Shown piece after piece: positions 1 to 47,654 of a stretch of DNA of 64,000 nucleotides. The stretch's first letter is position 1, and each line of letters starts with the position of its first letter. The translations under genes and the position numbers were made by a program. The stretch lies in contig QPGO01000131.1 in assembly GCA_008632985.1 (NCBI GenBank), forward strand, positions 62,001 through 126,000, read 5' to 3'. The notes beneath the pieces are model-generated. The model did no database searches, had not been told where the DNA came from, and was given only the letters and a program-made list of their open reading frames with translations. This DNA is from Psammoneis japonica (taxonomy: Eukaryota).

Positions 1-54
1 ACACAAAAACCATTGGAGGTCCAACACACACATTTGTGAAAAAAAAATGTTGAA

Positions 55-722
55 CCTTCTGACAGAATTTGAACAAGAATGACTCGCTCTTGCTCTGCCC
101 CTGTCATTCAAGCATTGGTGGTGTCAGGTGGACATGGCGCAAGCAGAACTCTGGCCCACTGCAAGATCTGGTGCAACACCTTGCTGCTGTCTCCATGGCA
201 GACAAGTCTCCATGCAGAGACCATCACAGGTGCCCCTGTGAACAATGAGGACATGTGTTCCAGGGTCAGGAACAGTTTCATTTTGGTCTGGCCAGGTGGA
301 GGTGCCTGGTCTCATGCCTGTGATGACACGCCCAGATGTTCAGACACCCAGACAGCTGAGACACACAGTTGGTGTGACTCGAATCCAAGCCCACTCGCAC
401 CAGAATGCACCACCATTGTCACCAACAGATCACTCCACTCCCCAACACAAAAACCATTGGAGGTCCAACAGGCATGACACCAGGCACCTCCCCCTGGCCA
501 AACCAAAAGTTGTTTCTGACCCTGGAACACATGTCCCCATTGTTCACAGGGGCACCTGCAATGGCCTCTGCATGGAGACTTGTCTGCTGTGTAGACAGCA
601 GTGAGGTGTTGCACCATGTCTGGGCTGGAGCTCTGCTTGCTGTGTCCACCTGAAGTCATTGACACTCAAATGACAGAGACAGAGCAAGAGTGAGTCATTC
701 TTGTTCAAATTTTGTCAGAGGT
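55..722. repeat. Foldback/MITE-like inverted repeat (arms about 55-322 and 467-722, spacer about 145 bp)
   Basis: ctgacagaatttgaacaagaatgactc...ggtgcctggtctcatgcctgt on the left is the diverged reverse complement of acaggcatgacaccaggcacc...gagtcattcttgttcaaattttgtcagag on the right. acacaaaaaccattggaggtccaaca occurs at 1-26 and again at about 445-470. Confidence 0.75.
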
Positions 723-4822: not shown

Positions 4823-7366
4823 ATGCAATCTACAGTCCAAACGACTGCTTTGATATCCAATCTTCGAGCCAAGGTAACAGGCGCAGACGTGAACTATGTA
4901 GGAAGCGTTACAATTGATGCTGTCCTGTGCGATTATGTCGGCATCTTTGACAGACAACTCCTGCACATTAGAAATGAATCTACCGGAGTCGACCTGTGGA
5001 CCTATGTGATATACGGAAGACGCTCCTCATCCGTTCCGCCAGGCACTGTTTGCCTGAACGGAGCTGCTGCTCATCTTGTTTCGGTCGGTGATGTTGTGAA
5101 CCTTACTGCATGGGGGCGCTTCCCCGCATGTGTGTCGTTACCTGAACCAAGAACATGGGACGCGGTTGTGAATGGGTTTGAACCGCCATTAGGCTATACT
5201 CCAGATGAGCTCTGGGCTCACATGGCTTCTGTAGAAATAGCTATCGGAAAAATTCACCGCCCTCGAATCTCACAAGTTTGTGAAATTCCCATCGGAGGGG
5301 GGCATGCGCCATCTATTGCGGTCGACAAAGATTGGGCAGATGAGGCTGGTCTATTGGAAGGCCAAGTTGCGCACCTCGTCAACATTACAACAGGGCAGAG
5401 AGATGTCTTACCCATCAAATATGCAAGCGCTGGATCAAAAGCATGTATACTTTCAATGCCTGCGTCCGGTGTCTACGCAACGGAAAACTACGGTTCGCGA
5501 TCTGGTCATTTTGCAGGCGATATTGTTATTGTCATGTGTTATGCAACGGTAATGCGCTCCGCCTTGAAATCTGGGTCCATACCCAGCATGAAGATATCTT
5601 TCCCATGTGAGCGCGCAGAAGATGCTGAAGATCCTTTGGACACGAGTTGGTATTCGGCTACACGAATTGTATGGGAAGAACCAAAGCTTGCCGCAGGACT
5701 TGTCGATCTTCTGGACCTAAAGAGACCTGGGTTAAGGGTGTTGGACTGTTCTTGTGGAAATGCTTTTCCAGCGACATATTTGATCAAGGCTGGGGTGGAT
5801 CTTCACTTGTCTGATTGCTCAGAGCTTGTTTGCACGAGTGCCAGAGAAAGACTAGCCGAGGAGCTTGGACCAGACCATGGCGTTGATGTACGATGTGTGC
5901 AATGGGATAAATTAGCTTGCGAATACGGCAAGCAGTCTTTCGACGTTATCATTTGGAGGGGAGTCTCCCTGCCCTATGTCGAAGGGGGGTGTTGTAGTGC
6001 AACTTCGATCGGACGAGAGTCAATTGCAGCCACTGGGTACAGGAACCTTCACTCGGCCGCTGCTGGTATATTCAATGTCTTAGCCCCGGGAGGCAAGCTG
6101 TATGTCGATTGTGTCCCTAGCTACGCTGAAAATGGTAAGGCCATAAAGAAAGACGGGCTTTCACCCGAGACTGAAAGTGGAGCACAAGTCACGGTCGAGT
6201 GGGAGACCCGCGTTGACGAGGAGCAACGTTCACGTAAATGGAGTAGCACAACAACAATCGATAAGGACGGACAGTCGACTCGCACAATGAACTCGAACTT
6301 AACTGCATTGCTGGTGAGAGAACAAGAAATCCGCTCTGTACTATCCTACGTTGGATTTGGAGTCGTCGAAAGCACCACGTGTGACGGCGAAGATGTGTAC
6401 CAGCCATTTATTGCACACAAACCAACCGCTGAGATTGGCTATTACGATCGTCAAGTAGAGCGCTATCGTAGCGTGTGGAACGACAATGGCAAAATACTAT
6501 GGGGCTTGTTTGCTGGTGTCGCTCCTTATGTCATGACGCCAGAGATGACTGAAATGTCGTCCGTTTGTGGTAAAGGGGCTCTTGTCGGACCAAACCTAGC
6601 CATGCAAGCTTTCATGGTGAGCAAACTCGATCCAATAACGGTGAAAAGTATATTAGACGTGGGATGCGGAACGGGCAGGTCAACAATAGATCTGTCGAAA
6701 CATTTTTCCACAGCTCAATGTGTGGGCTGCGATCCCAGCGGCGTCAGTATCCGGCAAGGTGTGAGTCGGGCAAAGGACGAGGGAGTTTCTGACAGGACTA
6801 CGTTCTTCCACGGGACTGTGCAGGATTTGATTGCGAGCGGTTGTGTCAAGGGGGCATTTTCGGCGGCATGGTCGGAGGCTGCTCTATGTCATGCCCCGCC
6901 TGGTGAACGTGCCGACGCAATTCGTGCAATAGCAGACCATGTGGAAGACGGCGGTATGTTTGTTCTGAACGATGCTGTCGCAGGACTGGCCCCCGTTTCG
7001 GCTGCGGCGCAACTTCACTTTTATGAGCGTTTGCATTACACTGGGCTTTGGACGGGTCGCATGTACATGGAGTTGCTTGAGTCTTGCGGCCTGCAGATTA
7101 TCGAGTATGTAGATTTGACTCAACACCTTGCGGCAAGCTACGATAAGTTAGCCGAGGAAGCAAAGATGGCGGCGGACGCATCAGGAGAGGACGTCGAGGC
7201 CAGACAAACATTCGCGACTCTCGCCGTGGATTACAAGATATCTGCGGAATGTGCACGGAGGGGTGAGCTCGGCTGGAATCTTTTCGTATGCAAGAAGTTG
7301 GGACGTGCTGGAGTTCAGAGGCAGAATTATAACGAAGCGGACAGCGAGGAAAAGAAACTTGACTGA
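4823..7366 (+). CDS. Fusion protein: PanD-like, PanD-like, glycine/sarcosine N-methyltransferase-like, sarcosine/dimethylglycine N-methyltransferase-like
   Basis: Domain 1: ADVNYVGSVTID, LWTY, NGAAAHLVSVGD. Domain 2: GKIHR, AGLLEG, NITTGQR, GDIVIVMCY. SAM motif I twice (VLDCSCGNA, ILDVGCGTG). SDMT-like C-terminus (FYERLH...DLTQHL...SY...GELGWNLFVCKK). First ATG at 4823; no introns. Confidence 0.85.
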   Translation: MQSTVQTTALISNLRAKVTGADVNYVGSVTIDAVLCDYVGIFDRQLLHIRNESTGVDLWTYVIYGRRSSSVPPGTVCLNGAAAHLVSVGDVVNLTAWGRFPACVSLPEPRTWDAVVNGFEPPLGYTPDELWAHMASVEIAIGKIHRPRISQVCEIPIGGGHAPSIAVDKDWADEAGLLEGQVAHLVNITTGQRDVLPIKYASAGSKACILSMPASGVYATENYGSRSGHFAGDIVIVMCYATVMRSALKSGSIPSMKISFPCERAEDAEDPLDTSWYSATRIVWEEPKLAAGLVDLLDLKRPGLRVLDCSCGNAFPATYLIKAGVDLHLSDCSELVCTSARERLAEELGPDHGVDVRCVQWDKLACEYGKQSFDVIIWRGVSLPYVEGGCCSATSIGRESIAATGYRNLHSAAAGIFNVLAPGGKLYVDCVPSYAENGKAIKKDGLSPETESGAQVTVEWETRVDEEQRSRKWSSTTTIDKDGQSTRTMNSNLTALLVREQEIRSVLSYVGFGVVESTTCDGEDVYQPFIAHKPTAEIGYYDRQVERYRSVWNDNGKILWGLFAGVAPYVMTPEMTEMSSVCGKGALVGPNLAMQAFMVSKLDPITVKSILDVGCGTGRSTIDLSKHFSTAQCVGCDPSGVSIRQGVSRAKDEGVSDRTTFFHGTVQDLIASGCVKGAFSAAWSEAALCHAPPGERADAIRAIADHVEDGGMFVLNDAVAGLAPVSAAAQLHFYERLHYTGLWTGRMYMELLESCGLQIIEYVDLTQHLAASYDKLAEEAKMAADASGEDVEARQTFATLAVDYKISAECARRGELGWNLFVCKKLGRAGVQRQNYNEADSEEKKLD

Positions 7367-7616: not shown

Positions 7617-9487
7617 TTAAATGCCGTCGCACAAAGTCTGGAACTCACGCTCCATTTCTTCGACAATGGCGCCGTAGTTCTTGTTGATGTTCTCCTGTGT
7701 CTCCTTCGGGTCAACGTACTTGGTATCAATGACCTTCTGGATGACAGGGGCAAGTGCGGTCTTGATGTGGGCGTACGTGAGCTTGGCATCAGCGGGAGAG
7801 TCGGCAATCGCCTTTTGGCAGAGATCGTAAAAGGTGATGATGACCTTGAGCATACCAACAGTCTTGGGGAGAGGACAAGTATAATCGTGCTCCGTGAAAG
7901 CGTTCTGGGCAAGGAAATCCTCACGAATAAGCTTGGCAACCTCCATTACGACCTTCTGATCCTCAGAAAGAGACTCCTTACCGACGAGCTGCACAATCTC
8001 AGAAAGGTTGTCTTCCATCTGGAGGATGTTACGGCCCTGGTTACGCAAGTACGAGTACTTCTCGTCCAAGGAGTTGAAGTACGGCTCAAGCACCTGCATG
8101 TACTTGGTGTACGAGATGAGCCAATTTAAACTTGGAAAATGTTTACGCTGGGCGAGCTTCTTATCGAGACCCCAGAACACTTGCACAATGGAAAGTGTAG
8201 CAGCGGTAACGGGATCAGAGAAATCACCACCGGGAGGGCTCACAGCACCAACAACCGTAACAGTTCCTTCACGCTCGGGAGAACCAAGACAAGAGACACG
8301 GCCAGCACGTTCATAGAAAGCAGCAAGACGGGCTCCAAGGTAGGCGGGGTAACCGGAATCTGCAGGCATCTCTCCCAAACGTCCAGAAATCTCACGAAGA
8401 GCCTCGGCCCAACGCGAGGTGGAGTCAGCCATCATGGACACGTTCATTCCCTGATCACGGAAGTACTCGGCAAGGGTAATACCAGTGTAAATGGAAGCCT
8501 CACGGGCTGCCACGGGCATGTTGGAAGTATTTGCTACAAGAGTAGTACGCTTCATGATTCCAACCTCCTTTTCTGTCCGGTTGCCTTGTCGACAATCTGC
8601 ATCGTCAATTCCGGGAAGTCACAAAGGACCTCCGCCATTTCATTTCCTCGTTCTCCACAGCCGACGTAGACAATGGCGTCGGAGTTTGAAAACTTGGAAA
8701 GAGACTGACTAATCACCGTCTTTCCACATCCAAAGGCCCCAGGCACAGCACATGTACCTCCAAGCACTGAGGGGAAAAGTCCATCAATAACACGAAGACC
8801 GGTAATAAGAGGGCGGTTTCCGGGAAGCTTCTCATTGATGGGACGAGGGCGGCGCACGGGCCAGAAATGACTGAGTGTAAGGTGATGAGTCTTGTCTTGG
8901 GATTCATTGTAGACTTCCATGACGACATCATCAACAAGGAAAGTCTCCTTTCCATCTGTTCCAGTGGTGTGAATCTTTTTGATTTCTCCATAGACATTGG
9001 GTGGACAGAGAATCTTGTGCGAATCGATAATCTCGTTTTCGTAGACAACACCAATCACGTCACCTCCACTGACAGGCTGCCCCTCCTTGAAGTTTCCGGG
9101 GGTAAAGGTCCAGCGAGTATCGCGGGTAAGGCAGGGAACATCCACACCCTTTGGCACGTAGACATCACCCGAGTCTTGGAAAATGTGCTCCAGAGGACGC
9201 TGAATACCATCGAAAATGGTTCCCATGATACCGGGACCAAGCTCAACGGAAAGTGGCTGCTTCTTACGAAGAACAGGATCACCCACGGTAAGACCAGAGG
9301 TATCCTCGTAGACCTGAATGGAAGCGGTATCACCCTCAAGCTTGATAATCTCTCCGACGAGCTTGGAGTGCCCGACACGGACAAGCTCGTACATCGCACT
9401 TCCACTCATGCCGTCAGCAACGACAAGGGGACCGGATACCTTGAAGATAAATCCATAGTCGCTTTCCTTTTCGGTGTCAAGGTTCAT
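7617..9487 (-). CDS. ATP6V1A: V-type H+-ATPase catalytic subunit A, with a one-base frameshift near 8570
   Basis: [10 protein letters not shown]-loop [48 protein letters not shown]. Adding one A in gga cag aaa agg joins the two ORFs as [11 protein letters not shown]. Confidence 0.97.
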
Positions 9488-10328
9488 GTTGGCTGTTTCT
9501 CTTGGCGGGATTATGACAAGTCTGTGATTTGGCGAGAAAACAAAATGTGAGCAGACAAGTCCACGTGCAAGCGCACGCAAGTAGAAACAGTACCACAATC
9601 CCCGTAGAAAAGTATCCGACGCCTCAGCAACGGTTCGATTTCGGAAGCACAAGGAGCTCGATCAAACCAGCGGTGCAAAGCTCCGCTATCTCTTCCGATT
9701 CAATGGACAGACAGTATCGACACAGAGCGGATTCTGGGAGGCGATGTCGAAAAGCGGCAAGCCGATAGATCAATCTGCAAACAAAAAATACCGTTTGTCG
9801 GTATGTTCGGATCGCCAACCATGACAGCACATGGAGGGGAAAACCAGAGCAAATATTGACACAGACGCCCTCTCATAGCATCATGAAAGCTATCCTCATT
9901 TTCCAAACGCTCAGTTATACTGAACATGCCGCACGGGACAGCGGCTGTTCGCCATGGACCACTCACCGTCGGTATCTCCGGAAGATTGAAGATTGTGCCG
10001 CCTGCATCACACCTGCACGCCGCGTGATGCAAAATAGCAAGAGCCGTTCGCTCAAATAAATGACGCTTATCGTCGTACTGCTGCTACGAAAGTTCTACGT
10101 ACGGAATCTGACCGATTTTAGAGTTCGTTTGACAGGAAGAGCCGAACAGATTTTATTAGAACCATGCATAATTTTAAAATGAATTTGATATGAATTATAA
10201 AATAAATGAAGAATATATATGATGTGGTCATTATTGACATTTTCCAGACATTTGAGCCTGCTCTGGACATTTTCATGTTGTGTGCTTCACGCTTCACGTT
10301 TCACGTCTCGGGGTGTTGGGTGTTAACC

Positions 10329-41551: not shown

Positions 41552-43383
41552 TCAAAAGTCTTCCAAACCATATGGATCAAAATCGTCCAGGTCCTCGTCT
41601 TCCAAAACGGCGGCAAAGGGTATTGCCGACGGACTAATAGCATCATCTTCGTCAGCATACAGCAAATCGTACAAGTCTCGTCGCTCTTCGCGTAATCGTG
41701 AGATACTACCATCGGGTTCCGTCTTTTTGGCGCCCTTGGTTTTCTTCTTTTTCTTTGCCGCAGTCTTTTTCGGCTTTGCTTTGCGTGCCGTAGTTGTCTT
41801 TTTGATCGCAGGCTTTGCCACCTTTTTCTTTTTGACCGCTACGACTTTCTTTACCTTTTTTACTGCTCGCGGTTGCACCGCTCGAACCTCGTCCGTCTTT
41901 TTCCGTCTCGTGCGACGTGGAGATGGCAAAATTCCCATCTCTTCTCGCTTCTTGGCCATGGCATTAACAATTTTATTCCGGTATTCTTGATCTTGCCACT
42001 TTTTCTTCATGGCTTCACTGATACGCTGTCGGTGTGTTTTACCGTATCCTTTTTCTGGGCTCTTTCGTGTGTGGATTTTGGCCATCATTTTTTCACGAAA
42101 TTCAGGATCTTGCCATTTCGCCTTGAGCGTTTCCGAGATGCGTTTGCGGACATCCTCAGCCGAATTGCTAACGTTTGACTTTTCTACCATGTTGTCACGG
42201 TAAGACTTGTCGTTGGCCCATCTCTTTTTCAGAGACGCACTGATTTTAGCTCTTGTTTCCGCGCTGTGTGTAAATCCGCGCCTCACCTTGGAGGGATCAA
42301 CTGGCGTTCGTTTAATTTCACCCTTCGCATACTTGTCCTTGAGCACTTTCGATATCTTTTCTTTCGTCTCTTTTGTTGGTCGAAGGCCTCCCTTTTCGGT
42401 TCTTCTAGCCCGTCGCTCAGCATCCTTTTTCCTTCGTTCTGCCCGTTTCTGTTCCTTGTACTCCTCCTCGGTAATACCCTGTTCCTCTAGTTTCTTGAGA
42501 AAGTTTTGCCGGTTCCTGGCTCGCACACCCGCTGCAATTCGCGCTCTTGTCTCCTCAGAACGTGCCTTGCCCTTGTTCCATGGGATTTTCCCCTTGTTTG
42601 CGGCTGATATTTTTGCCTTGGACGACTTGGTGTGGGTGTATCCGCCGTTTGCGGTAGGATGAGGCACGTCATCGTCCGTGGGTTGCTCTGTTTCCCATAT
42701 CGGAATGTTAGACTCGTCTATTACTGAAGCGCCATTAACAGTAACAGAATTTTCCTTTCCATTTGATGCTGGAACGTTAGTCAACAGAGTGGCATTACTT
42801 ATACCGGAAGAGGAGTTCTGCGGAGCAGGGTCACTGCTTTTTCCATTCACTGTAGCTTCCGCTGTTGCATTCTGCGCCGGAGCAACTACATTTTCGACTG
42901 TAACTTCAGCTTTGTCAACTTGGGTAGAAGGGCCTGGCGATTCAGCTATATCCACTTCTGTGCTCCACAATCTAACCAAGCCCAGTGAAGGCGAAGAACA
43001 CTGTCCTAGCTCAGTCGATTGAAATAGTGGCCGATGAAACGGAACTCTACGAGGACACGGAGGAGCGTTAAAGCACGGACCTCCACGGCGCTCTCGTCGG
43101 TGCATACCCCTTGACCATGGTATCCATCGTCCTTGAAAGGCATCAACGACCATCCTAGGGCGAGTCTGACTTCCACCGGGCAGCAATACAGGATTGAAGC
43201 CAGAGTTGCAACAAGCGGTAGTTTTCGTCTACGTCGCTTAGAAGTTGACCTCTGAGGTCTCATCTCTGAATTCATCGTTTCTATCGCCTCTTTTCTTTTC
43301 ACTGTGTTCTCTAGCTCTGCTATTGACCGTTCTATGGTGTCCTTGGTTGCCGAAAGCCTCTTGTTTAGCATTTCATCCATCAT
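41552..43383 (-). CDS. Basic protein with NUMOD3-like repeats, full-length copy; one-base frameshift near 43187
   Basis: HTKSSKAKISAANKGKIPWNKG, SEETRARI, ETKEKIS, HSAETRAKISASLKKRW; acidic tail. The paralog has caataaca where this copy has caataca. Confidence 0.8.
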
Positions 43384-46235: not shown

Positions 46236-47654
46236 CTACTGACGAGTGTTAGTAGTGTATGTATGTAGATCGGCATCTGGGTCGTCCAACATGGCTTCAC
46301 TGATGCGCTGTCGGTGTGTTTTACCATGTCCTTTTTCTGGGCTCTTTCGTGTGTGGATTTTGGCCATCATTTTTTCACGAAATTCAGGATCTTGCCATTT
46401 CGCCTTGAGCGTTTCCGAGATGCGTTTGCGGACATCCTCAGCCAATTTTCTACCGTTTGACTTTTCCACCATGTTGTCGCGGTAAGACTTGTCGTTGGCC
46501 CATCTCTTTTTCATAGACGCACTGATTTTGGCTTTTGTTTCCGCGCTGTGTGTAGATCCGCGCCTCCACTTTGAGGGATCAACTGGCGTTCGTTTAATGT
46601 CACCCTTCGCCCACTTGTCCTTGAGCACTTTCGATATCTTTTCTTTCGTCTCTTTTGTGTGTCGATAGCCTCCCTTTTCGGTTCTTCTAGCCCGTCGCTC
46701 AGCTTCCTTTTTCCTTCGTTCCGCCCGTTTCTGTTCCTCGTACTCCTCCTCTGTAATACCCAGTTCCTCTAGTTTCTTGAGAAAGTTTTGCCGGTTCCTG
46801 GCTCGCACACCCGCTGCAATTCGCGCTCTTGTCTCCTCAGAACGTGCCTTTCCCTTGTTCCACGGGATTTTCCCCTTGTGTGCAGCTGATATTTTTGCCT
46901 TGGCCGCCTTGGTGTGGGAGTATCCACCGTTTGCGGTAGGACGAGGCATATCATCGTTCGTGGGTTGCTCTGTTTCCCGTGTCGGAATGTTAGACTCGTC
47001 TATTACTGAAGCACCATTAACAGTAACAGAATTTTCCTTTCCATTTGATGCTGGAACCGTAGTCAACAGAGTGGCATTACTTATACCGGAAGAGGAGTTC
47101 TGCGGAGCAGGGTCACTGCTTTTTCCATTCACTGTAGCTTCCGCTGTCGCATTCTGCGCCGGAGCAACTACATTTTCGACTGTAACTTCAGCTTTGTCAA
47201 CTTGGGTAGAAGGGCCTGGCGATTCAGCTATATCCACTTCTGTGCTCCACAATCTAACCAAGCCCAGTGAAGGCGAAGAACACTGTCCTAGCTCAGTCGA
47301 TTGAAATAGTGGCCGATGAAACGGAACTCTACGAGGACACGGAGGAGCGTTAAAGCACGGACCTCCACGGCGCTCTCGTCGGTGCATACCCCTTGACCAT
47401 GGTATCCATCGTCCTTGAAAGGCATCAACAACAACCCTAGGGCGAGTCTGACTTCCACCGGGCAGCAATAACAGGATTGAAGCCAGAGTTGCAGCGAGCG
47501 GTATTTTTCGTCTGCGTCGCTTAGAAGTTGACCTCTGAGGTCTCATCTCTGAATCCATCGTTTCTCTCGCCGCTTTTCTTTTCACTGTTATCCCTAGCTT
47601 TGCTATTTTCCGTTCTGTGGTGTTCTTGGTTGCCGAAAGCCTCTTGTTTAGCAT
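46236..47654 (-). CDS. 3'-truncated paralog of the NUMOD3-like protein, with an open frame and a new short tail
   Basis: 472-aa ORF similar to copy A up to RISEAM, then LDDPDADLHTYTTNTRQ from junction DNA. Confidence 0.65.
   Translation of the reverse strand: MLNKRLSATKNTTERKIAKLGITVKRKAARETMDSEMRPQRSTSKRRRRKIPLAATLASILLLLPGGSQTRPRVVVDAFQGRWIPWSRGMHRRERRGGPCFNAPPCPRRVPFHRPLFQSTELGQCSSPSLGLVRLWSTEVDIAESPGPSTQVDKAEVTVENVVAPAQNATAEATVNGKSSDPAPQNSSSGISNATLLTTVPASNGKENSVTVNGASVIDESNIPTRETEQPTNDDMPRPTANGGYSHTKAAKAKISAAHKGKIPWNKGKARSEETRARIAAGVRARNRQNFLKKLEELGITEEEYEEQKRAERRKKEAERRARRTEKGGYRHTKETKEKISKVLKDKWAKGDIKRTPVDPSKWRRGSTHSAETKAKISASMKKRWANDKSYRDNMVEKSNGRKLAEDVRKRISETLKAKWQDPEFREKMMAKIHTRKSPEKGHGKTHRQRISEAMLDDPDADLHTYTTNTRQ

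Follow-up and report, generated by a model that had tools for sequence, protein, structure and literature searches.

Aspartate 1-decarboxylase (PanD), a target of drugs against tuberculosis, is a textbook case of a pyruvoyl enzyme that processes itself. The bacterial enzyme (PF02261; Escherichia coli structures 1aw8/1ppy, Mycobacterium tuberculosis structures 2c45/6oz8) is a homotetramer of identical subunits of about 115 to 140 amino acids (aa), each of which carries the full set of active-site residues and contributes to two sites. Here, we analyze a 64,000-nucleotide stretch of the eukaryote Psammoneis japonica (assembly GCA_008632985.1, contig QPGO01000131.1, positions 62,001 to 126,000 of the forward strand; referred to below as the window), in which an open reading frame (ORF) at 4823..7366 encodes a relative of PanD. 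The window protein has the same fold, and its active site would likewise draw on two barrels, but it differs from bacterial PanD in that two diverged barrels, D1 and D2, lie in one chain, each with half of the residue set, in a eukaryotic (diatom-type) protein fused to two methyltransferases. Its fold and its Pfam score place it in the PanD superfamily. As a PanD it is nonstandard, however: no single domain has the full set, and the score required by the equivalog model is missed.

With respect to the bacterial enzyme, the published side assignments are explicit. The PanD active site lies between two adjacent subunits, with Arg54 supplied by the neighbor, an R54A variant being inactive and the Ala74/Ala75 backbone of the pyruvoyl subunit binding the ligand carboxylate (PMC6969166). 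In PMC3314653, Lys9 and Arg54 are assigned to the opposite subunit and Pyr25, Thr57, and Tyr58 to the subunit itself, and Thr57 is the residue required for activation (PMC3975893). In M. tuberculosis PanD, the C-terminal loop of the alpha-chain also helps to build a lid over the active site. An earlier, sequence-only reading of this DNA had assumed an intersubunit site with Lys9 and Arg54 coming from the neighbor, and that premise agrees with PMC3314653 and PMC6969166 on the points cited here.

A second described parallel is found in S-adenosylmethionine decarboxylase (AdoMetDC). The account in PMC10407285 presents the eukaryotic class 2 AdoMetDC as two fused prokaryote-type protomers, only one of which has a pyruvoyl-forming site, and also describes bacterial SpeD-SpeD fusions with a degraded second domain. 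These are pyruvoyl decarboxylases in which duplication or fusion was followed by the loss of one site, and the window protein resembles them in having two homologous protomers per chain, of which only D1 is, at the sequence level, fit for pyruvoyl formation (Gly-Ser, Thr57). The likeness is an analogy of design and not homology: the AdoMetDC fold and family are unrelated, and there it is the second domain that lost its site, whereas the losses in the tandem PanD are two-sided and reciprocal. We found no paper describing a tandem PanD or a PanD-methyltransferase fusion in the full-text literature, a coverage that leaves supplements and subscription journals outside.

The ORF is uninterrupted, with 847 aa and a stop codon. 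Pfam places PF02261 (Asp_decarbox) in two stretches (E value 4.8e-27, 94.6 bits, passing the cut-off of 25) and, C-terminal of these, generic class I S-adenosylmethionine (SAM) methyltransferase families, likewise in two stretches. The domain order is common to the homologues P0003, P0004, P0005, P0014, P0017, and P0025. Since the frame stays open for 847 aa, homologues are conserved, and the residues follow the pattern described below, we reject a chance ORF or a decayed pseudogene. The domains are laid out as follows, with confidence in the structure model given as the predicted local distance difference test (pLDDT):

4823..7366, plus strand: the whole ORF, with PanD-like D1, PanD-like D2, methyltransferase 1, and methyltransferase 2 (ORF, Pfam, homologues).
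4823..5188, plus strand: D1, the pyruvoyl-side half, aa 1-122 (phmmer, family table, fold match).
5189..5224, plus strand: linker between the two barrels, aa 123-134, falling between the VIA-align ranges 4..122 and 135..262 (pLDDT 88 in the block of aa 121-130 and 97 in that of aa 131-140).
5225..5608, plus strand: D2, the neighbor-side half, aa 135-262 (phmmer, family table, fold match).
5633..6418, plus strand: methyltransferase domain 1, about aa 271-532, motif I VLDCSCGNAF (second Pfam stretches, those of methyltransferases; residues 9-270 of the model of aa 263-847).
6587..7297, plus strand: methyltransferase domain 2, about aa 589-825, motif I ILDVGCGTG (PF13649; residues 327-563 of the model of aa 263-847).

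When the two barrels are aligned with PanD chains of known structure, we observe that they have kept different parts of the active site. By phmmer against PDB chains, D1 (aa 14-120) has E values of 3.4e-14 with 2c45 (M. tuberculosis PanD) and 1.7e-12 with 1ppy (E. coli PanD), and those of D2 (aa 141-214) with chains of the E. coli enzyme range from 2e-4 to 1e-3. Numbered as in E. coli PanD, D1 retains Tyr22 (Y25), Gly24-Ser25 (G27-S28), Thr57-Tyr58 (T60-Y61), and Asn72-Gly73-Ala74-Ala75 (N79-G80-A81-A82) and is without Lys9 (S12), His11 (L14), Arg54 (D57), and Ile86 (N93). D2 retains Lys9 (K143), His11 (H145), Arg12 (R146), Arg54 (R193), and Ile86 (I236); in it, Tyr22-Glu-Gly24-Ser25 is replaced by H161-A-P163-S164, Thr57-Tyr58 by L196-P197, and Asn72-Gly-Ala-Ala by P213-A-S-G (P213-G216). 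The Gly-Ser cleavage site and Thr57 thus occur together in D1 (G27-S28, T60) and are absent as a pair from D2 (P163-S164, L196), and the complete set (Lys9, His11, Arg54, Thr57, Tyr58, Asn72-Ala75) is in neither domain and is present in D1 and D2 jointly. The motifs on which the sequence-only reading had built its proposal of complementary halves, ISNLR, YVGS, TGVD, LWTY, and NGAAA in D1 and GKIHR, HAPS, and TGQR in D2, are all found as it gave them in HMMER alignments to solved PanDs. Its extent for the tandem, 4823-5550, stands only in part: the motifs lie within it, but 5550 corresponds to aa 243, and D2 continues to about aa 262 (nucleotide 5608).

Following the side assignments of PMC3314653 and PMC6969166, the residues kept in D1 are the pyruvoyl subunit's own set, and Lys9 and Arg54 of D2 are the neighbor's set. 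We infer that His11 and Ile86 also belong to the neighbor side of the interface, since their strand orientation is that of Lys9 and, in this family, they are conserved in the same pattern. The residues concerned are located as follows, with counts that refer to the 31 family members introduced below:

4823..4903, plus strand: predicted beta-chain M1-G27, freed if D1 self-cleaves (PanD alignment; homologue N-termini begin at the same place).
4901..4906, plus strand: G27-S28, predicted self-cleavage site, at which Ser28 would become the pyruvoyl group (Gly 31/31, Ser 31/31).
5000..5005, plus strand: T60-Y61, of which Thr57 serves activation and Tyr58 is the proton donor (31/31 each; roles from PMC3975893 and PMC3314653).
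5057..5068, plus strand: N79-G80-A81-A82, corresponding to Asn72-Gly73-Ala74-Ala75 (31, 31, 30, and 30 of 31).
5249..5257, plus strand: K143-I144-H145, with Lys9 and His11 (Lys 31/31, His 31/31).
5399..5401, plus strand: R193, corresponding to Arg54, for the distal carboxylate of aspartate (30/31, the miss being the fragment P0015; role from PMC3314653, PMC3975893, and PMC6969166).
5528..5530, plus strand: I236, corresponding to Ile86 (28/28 rows having a residue there).

The predicted beta-chain has 27 residues, with Gly24-Ser25 aligned to G27-S28, which matches the N-terminal peptide of about 27 residues that had been expected beforehand.

Homologues were gathered by a word-based search, by phmmer with aa 1-260 as the query, run exhaustively over 1.84 billion cluster representatives, and by an added search among shorter proteins. 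The exhaustive search returned 18 proteins at E ≤ 1e-30 and 45 at E ≤ 1e-10, and the family table was built from 31 aligned proteins holding both PanD domains. We observe the complementary pattern in 31/31 family members, with one exception at each of three positions, and the division of residues proposed earlier from the window gene is therefore not peculiar to it. At the positions held by D2, D1 has Lys9 in 0/30, His11 in 0/30, Arg54 in 1/31 (P0025), and Ile86 in 1/31. At those held by D1, the D2 counts are 0/29 for Gly24, 10/31 for Ser25, 0/31 for Thr57, 1/31 for Tyr58 (P0014), 1/25 for Asn72, 6/26 for Gly73, 7/24 for Ala74, and 1/23 for Ala75. Arg12 is found in both domains (28/30 in D1, 30/31 in D2). 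Long bacterial matches (15 inspected, 226 to 512 aa) were set aside as not tandem, since by eye, on the sequences, each has a single PanD domain followed by an unrelated or frameshift-like tail. In the ESM Atlas, the best rows are bacterial PanD clusters at 0.86 to 0.88, below the 0.9 threshold, one of them a 274-aa cluster.

Some of the replacements are themselves recurrent. Trp47 is replaced in both domains, by Arg in D1 (29/31; R50, window 4970-4972) and by Val in D2 (30/31), the D1 position of Arg54 is Asp or Glu in 24/31 (D57, window 4991-4993), and the D2 position of Gly24 is Pro in 26/29 (P163, window 5309-5311). The replacements at D1 Trp47, D1 Arg54, and D2 Gly24 are nonrandom and may themselves be selected, for example, as a salt bridge or as a block to cleavage.

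We calculated a rapid maximum-likelihood tree from 20 rows of D1, 20 rows of D2, and 68 PanDs that have a single domain and are 110 to 150 aa long (121 columns only, some long branches, and the fragments P0015, P0012, and P0003 omitted). In it, D1 forms one clade and D2 another among the single-domain PanDs, with Shimodaira-Hasegawa-like approximate likelihood ratio test (SH-aLRT) values of 99 and 98, respectively, and each of the two domain types goes back to one origin. Mean pairwise identity over 190 pairs is 0.43 for D1 and 0.38 for D2, and the divergences of the two domains correlate (Spearman 0.51). The D2 columns that are at least 90% conserved include K143, H145, R146, R193, and I236, and the former pyruvoyl-side positions of D2 (Y22, G24, N72-A75) drift and gain insertions and deletions. 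Because D2 is about as conserved as D1 and holds the neighbor-side set while its pyruvoyl-side positions drift, the family alignment supports selection on one composite site and not decay. The sequence-only reading had suggested the same from one gene, and both the identities and the place of the neighbor-side residues among the most conserved D2 columns bear it out.

Stand-alone forms of the tandem are also found. Several relatives, among them P0158, P0159, and P0160, end shortly past D2, without methyltransferases, and show the same complementary pattern; P0158 (296 aa), from an annotated eukaryotic genome, is annotated as aspartate 1-decarboxylase of the diatom Seminavis robusta. The same pattern in stand-alone tandems suggests that the tandem is a functional unit by itself, and going by its residues, such a protein could plausibly be a general source of beta-alanine. 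The C-terminal tails of the stand-alone tandems P0158, P0159, P0160, P0162, and P0163 have a motif in common, which can be written (D/N)L(H/Y)x(L/M)W(D/E)(H/K)S.

An AlphaFold2 model of aa 1-262, built from a 21-row alignment, has a pLDDT of 91.6 and a predicted template modeling score (pTM) of 0.87, with pLDDT falling to 72 at aa 211-230. Using VIA-align, D1 (aa 4-122) superposes on E. coli PanD 4crz_A with Z 15.6 and a root mean square deviation (rmsd) of 1.9 Å over 115 residues, and D2 (aa 135-262) superposes on Francisella tularensis PanD 3oug_C with Z 16.7 and 1.4 Å over 106 residues. The top Foldseek matches of the model are all PanD (E 3e-9 and weaker). As modeled, D1 and D2 are both full double-psi beta-barrel PanD folds in confident mutual packing.

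Taken at this level, aa 1-262 would be a pyruvoyl-dependent aspartate alpha-decarboxylase in the form of a fused pseudo-heterodimer, and we consider it probable from the residue pattern that a composite site of D1 and D2 decarboxylates aspartate. D1 would be the catalytic half, in which self-cleavage between Gly27 and Ser28, aided by Thr60, would release the 27-residue peptide and convert Ser28 to the pyruvoyl group; Tyr61 as proton donor and the Asn79-Ala82 loop would also come from D1. Pyruvoyl formation should be impossible in D2, which has Pro at the Gly24 position and no Thr57, and D2 would instead take the role of the neighboring PanD subunit, bringing Lys143, His145, Arg193, and Ile236 to the D1 site. 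Since each domain has one half of the catalytic set, one active site is expected per D1-D2 pair and not two. Most likely this site lies within one chain, as the sequence-only reading had proposed, with the geometry of K143 and R193 toward S28 being a predicted one.

Several observations weigh against this reading and need to be set beside it. The panD equivalog model TIGR00223 (NCBIfam) scores 94.1 bits and misses its cut-off of 106. The sequence match of D2 to PanD is weak (E about 2e-4), in contrast to its strong fold match, and a direct BLASTP comparison of D1 with D2 finds no similarity (E 6.1), so that a D1-D2 duplication cannot be demonstrated from the pair alone and rests on the fold and profile matches. 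The residue pattern has its exceptions, namely, the Arg at the Arg54 position of D1 in P0025, the Tyr at the Tyr58 position of D2 in P0014, and the Ser at the Ser25 position of D2 in 10/31. The cited papers, on the points used here, place only Lys9, Arg54, Thr57, Tyr58, Pyr25, and Ala74/75, which leaves the neighbor-side assignment of His11 and Ile86 to the argument given above. Finally, the placement of K143 and R193 next to S28 is a prediction from sequence.

The site could instead lie between chains: two tandems would dimerize into a ring of four barrels resembling the PanD tetramer, and D1 of each polypeptide would meet D2 of its partner. The contact within each chain would then be a dead interface of a D2 face with a D1 face. 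The bacterial tetramer has a site at each subunit interface (PMC6969166), both kinds of interface would be present in a dimer of tandems, and a weak third D1-like match in P0025 (domain E 9.5e-4) raises the possibility that some members assemble with more than two barrels. We nevertheless regard this arrangement as unlikely: the pyruvoyl-side face of D2 is poorly conserved, rich in insertions and deletions, and of reduced model confidence (the pLDDT of 72 at aa 211-230), unlike a maintained interface. A weaker argument comes from the D1 C-terminus, which appears to run straight into the D2 strand with K143/H145; together with the C-terminal lid of M. tuberculosis PanD, this is compatible with a site within the chain.

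PanD-like enzymes of secondary metabolism act on substituted aspartate, and the tandem might accordingly decarboxylate another substrate, either a substituted aspartate or an amino acid whose amine product the methyltransferases modify. The missed equivalog cut-off, the replacement of Trp47 in both domains, and the methyltransferase fusion, which shows a role beyond plain pantothenate synthesis, fit such a view. It is made distinctly improbable, however, by the aspartate-binding residues Arg54, Lys9, Thr57, and the Ala74/75 backbone, all of which are in their expected halves, and by the stand-alone tandems, which hold the same residue set. Dimethylsulfoniopropionate (DMSP) synthesis, or another route combining a decarboxylase with a methyltransferase, was set aside, the kept Arg54 and Lys9 favoring aspartate as far as residues can tell. 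Lastly, D2 as a structural or activating partner only, like an inactive paralogue, or the whole N-terminal region as a nonenzymatic relic, is very improbable: D2 has lost its cleavage site and is very diverged from PanD (E 2e-4), but D1 is without Lys9 (30/30), His11 (30/30), and Arg54 (30/31) and, R54A PanD being inactive (PMC6969166), needs a donor of those residues, and exactly these are what D2 keeps (in 30 to 31 of the 31 proteins), in contrast to the drift at the rest of its former site.

Two relatives depart from the common layout. In P0025 (1101 aa), D2 and the methyltransferases are set apart by an additional stretch of about 280 residues (region aa 260-560), in which the third D1-like match mentioned above lies at aa 340-401; judging by its sequence, this protein may carry three or four barrels per chain. 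P0064 (1549 aa) has a D1 in two pieces, matched at aa 15-55 and 423-463 and separated by about 370 residues of low-complexity sequence, with D2 following at aa 891-1009; its composition resembles that of a protist with expanded low-complexity regions.

The C-terminal part of the window protein (aa 263-847) was modeled from a nine-row alignment (pLDDT 77.7, pTM 0.71) and shows two Rossmann-type methyltransferase domains. Pfam assigns methyltransferase 2 to PF13649 (E 3.7e-23, aa 610-711), and in methyltransferase 1, D308, S310, and D374 are invariant among homologues. The best Foldseek matches are the Arabidopsis phosphoethanolamine N-methyltransferases 5wp4/5wp5 (E 3e-21 to 5e-20) and nematode PMT-2, and the next is the putative sarcosine/dimethylglycine methyltransferase 2o57, whose match covers one domain, at a template modeling (TM) score of 0.72 by target. 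Phosphoethanolamine N-methyltransferases add methyl groups one after another to a primary amine until it is a quaternary ammonium compound. The described enzymes of this group (5wp4, 5wp5, 4kri) also have two tandem class I domains, matching the C-terminal 585 aa at E 3e-21 to 4e-17, but they differ over the whole module (TM 0.35-0.49, rmsd 16-19 Å, identity 11-14%) and have no PanD fused; the low whole-module TM and high rmsd indicate that the methyltransferase domains are arranged differently. When aa 270-847 were used as the query of a word-based search, the only proteins to match strongly (at E 5e-57 or better) were four PanD fusions; two methyltransferase-only proteins gave weak matches (E about 4e-16), and no named betaine-synthesis enzyme was returned.

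Beta-alanine betaine has been reported from marine communities as a SAM-methylated compound (PMC9321204) and is among the polar metabolites of a diatom study (bioRxiv 10.1101/2021.11.04.467253). In plants, it is made by a single trifunctional methyltransferase, and the account in PMC6657504 has plants without a PanD homologue. Going by the fusion and by the structural resemblance, the two SAM-dependent domains would probably add methyl groups to the nitrogen of the beta-alanine formed by the tandem, with beta-alanine betaine as the furthest product. Likened by this proposed chemistry alone, the plant enzyme shares the iterative SAM-dependent N-methylation of beta-alanine to the betaine, but it is a single enzyme and not a pair of fused methyltransferase domains joined to a PanD tandem. 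That the whole protein makes beta-alanine betaine from aspartate in one polypeptide, through a pseudo-heterodimeric PanD and two N-methyltransferases, is a tentative proposal which we hold with some doubt.

The evidence from the methyltransferases does not all favor that proposal. Betaine-synthesis methyltransferases (Galdieria 2o57; diatom TpGSDMT), compared via 2o57 and profiles, resemble the module through weak NCBIfam matches in the same chain order, but the scores are far under the cut-offs, with GlySarMtaseBact (NF051855, aa 282-383) at 24.2 against 350 bits and sarc_dimgly_tmase (NF041675, aa 598-824) at 37.8 against 550 bits. The whole-module fit to 5wp4 has a TM of 0.35-0.41, an rmsd of 16 Å, and 14% identity. 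Furthermore, P0003, P0004, P0005, and P0014 (4/7 full-length proteins) have a seemingly degenerate motif I in methyltransferase 2, and Pfam finds no methyltransferase family in P0003 and P0014; the motif is canonical in the window gene (ILDVGCGTG), P0017, and P0025. On these sequences, methyltransferase 2 may be on its way to becoming a pseudo-domain in some family members.

With respect to the neighborhood, other ORFs of the window encode a V-type ATPase A subunit (over two frames), TFIIF beta, a choline kinase, and a rhomboid protein. The gene for V-type ATPase catalytic subunit A (7617-9652, minus strand) adjoins the PanD fusion gene directly downstream on the opposite strand and is represented by two overlapping ORFs (7617-8555 and 8552-9652), a split that a short intron or a change of frame near 8552 could account for. 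NUMOD3 is a DNA-binding module typical of homing endonucleases, and its motif occurs in two large ORFs on the minus strand, at 41552-43186 (544 aa, E 5e-19) and at 46236-47654 (472 aa, E 2e-20), which are two nearby paralogues in a eukaryotic nuclear-type region.

The PanD forms named in the literature cited here are homo-oligomers of identical subunits, and the sorting of the two sides of the interface into two fused domains amounts to a clean evolutionary experiment. The tandem shows which residues act across the interface and predicts His11 and Ile86 in addition to Lys9 and Arg54, and one site per chain would make it a simpler system for studies of pyruvoyl formation. In an unrelated fold, it repeats the presumed route by which the eukaryotic S-adenosylmethionine decarboxylase originated. 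The methyltransferase fusion is a candidate gene for beta-alanine betaine synthesis in diatoms and also a candidate for the algal beta-alanine supply. If these proposals are true, the fusion would be an algal route to an osmolyte seen in marine metabolomes, and the stand-alone tandem would be the diatom source of beta-alanine for coenzyme A.

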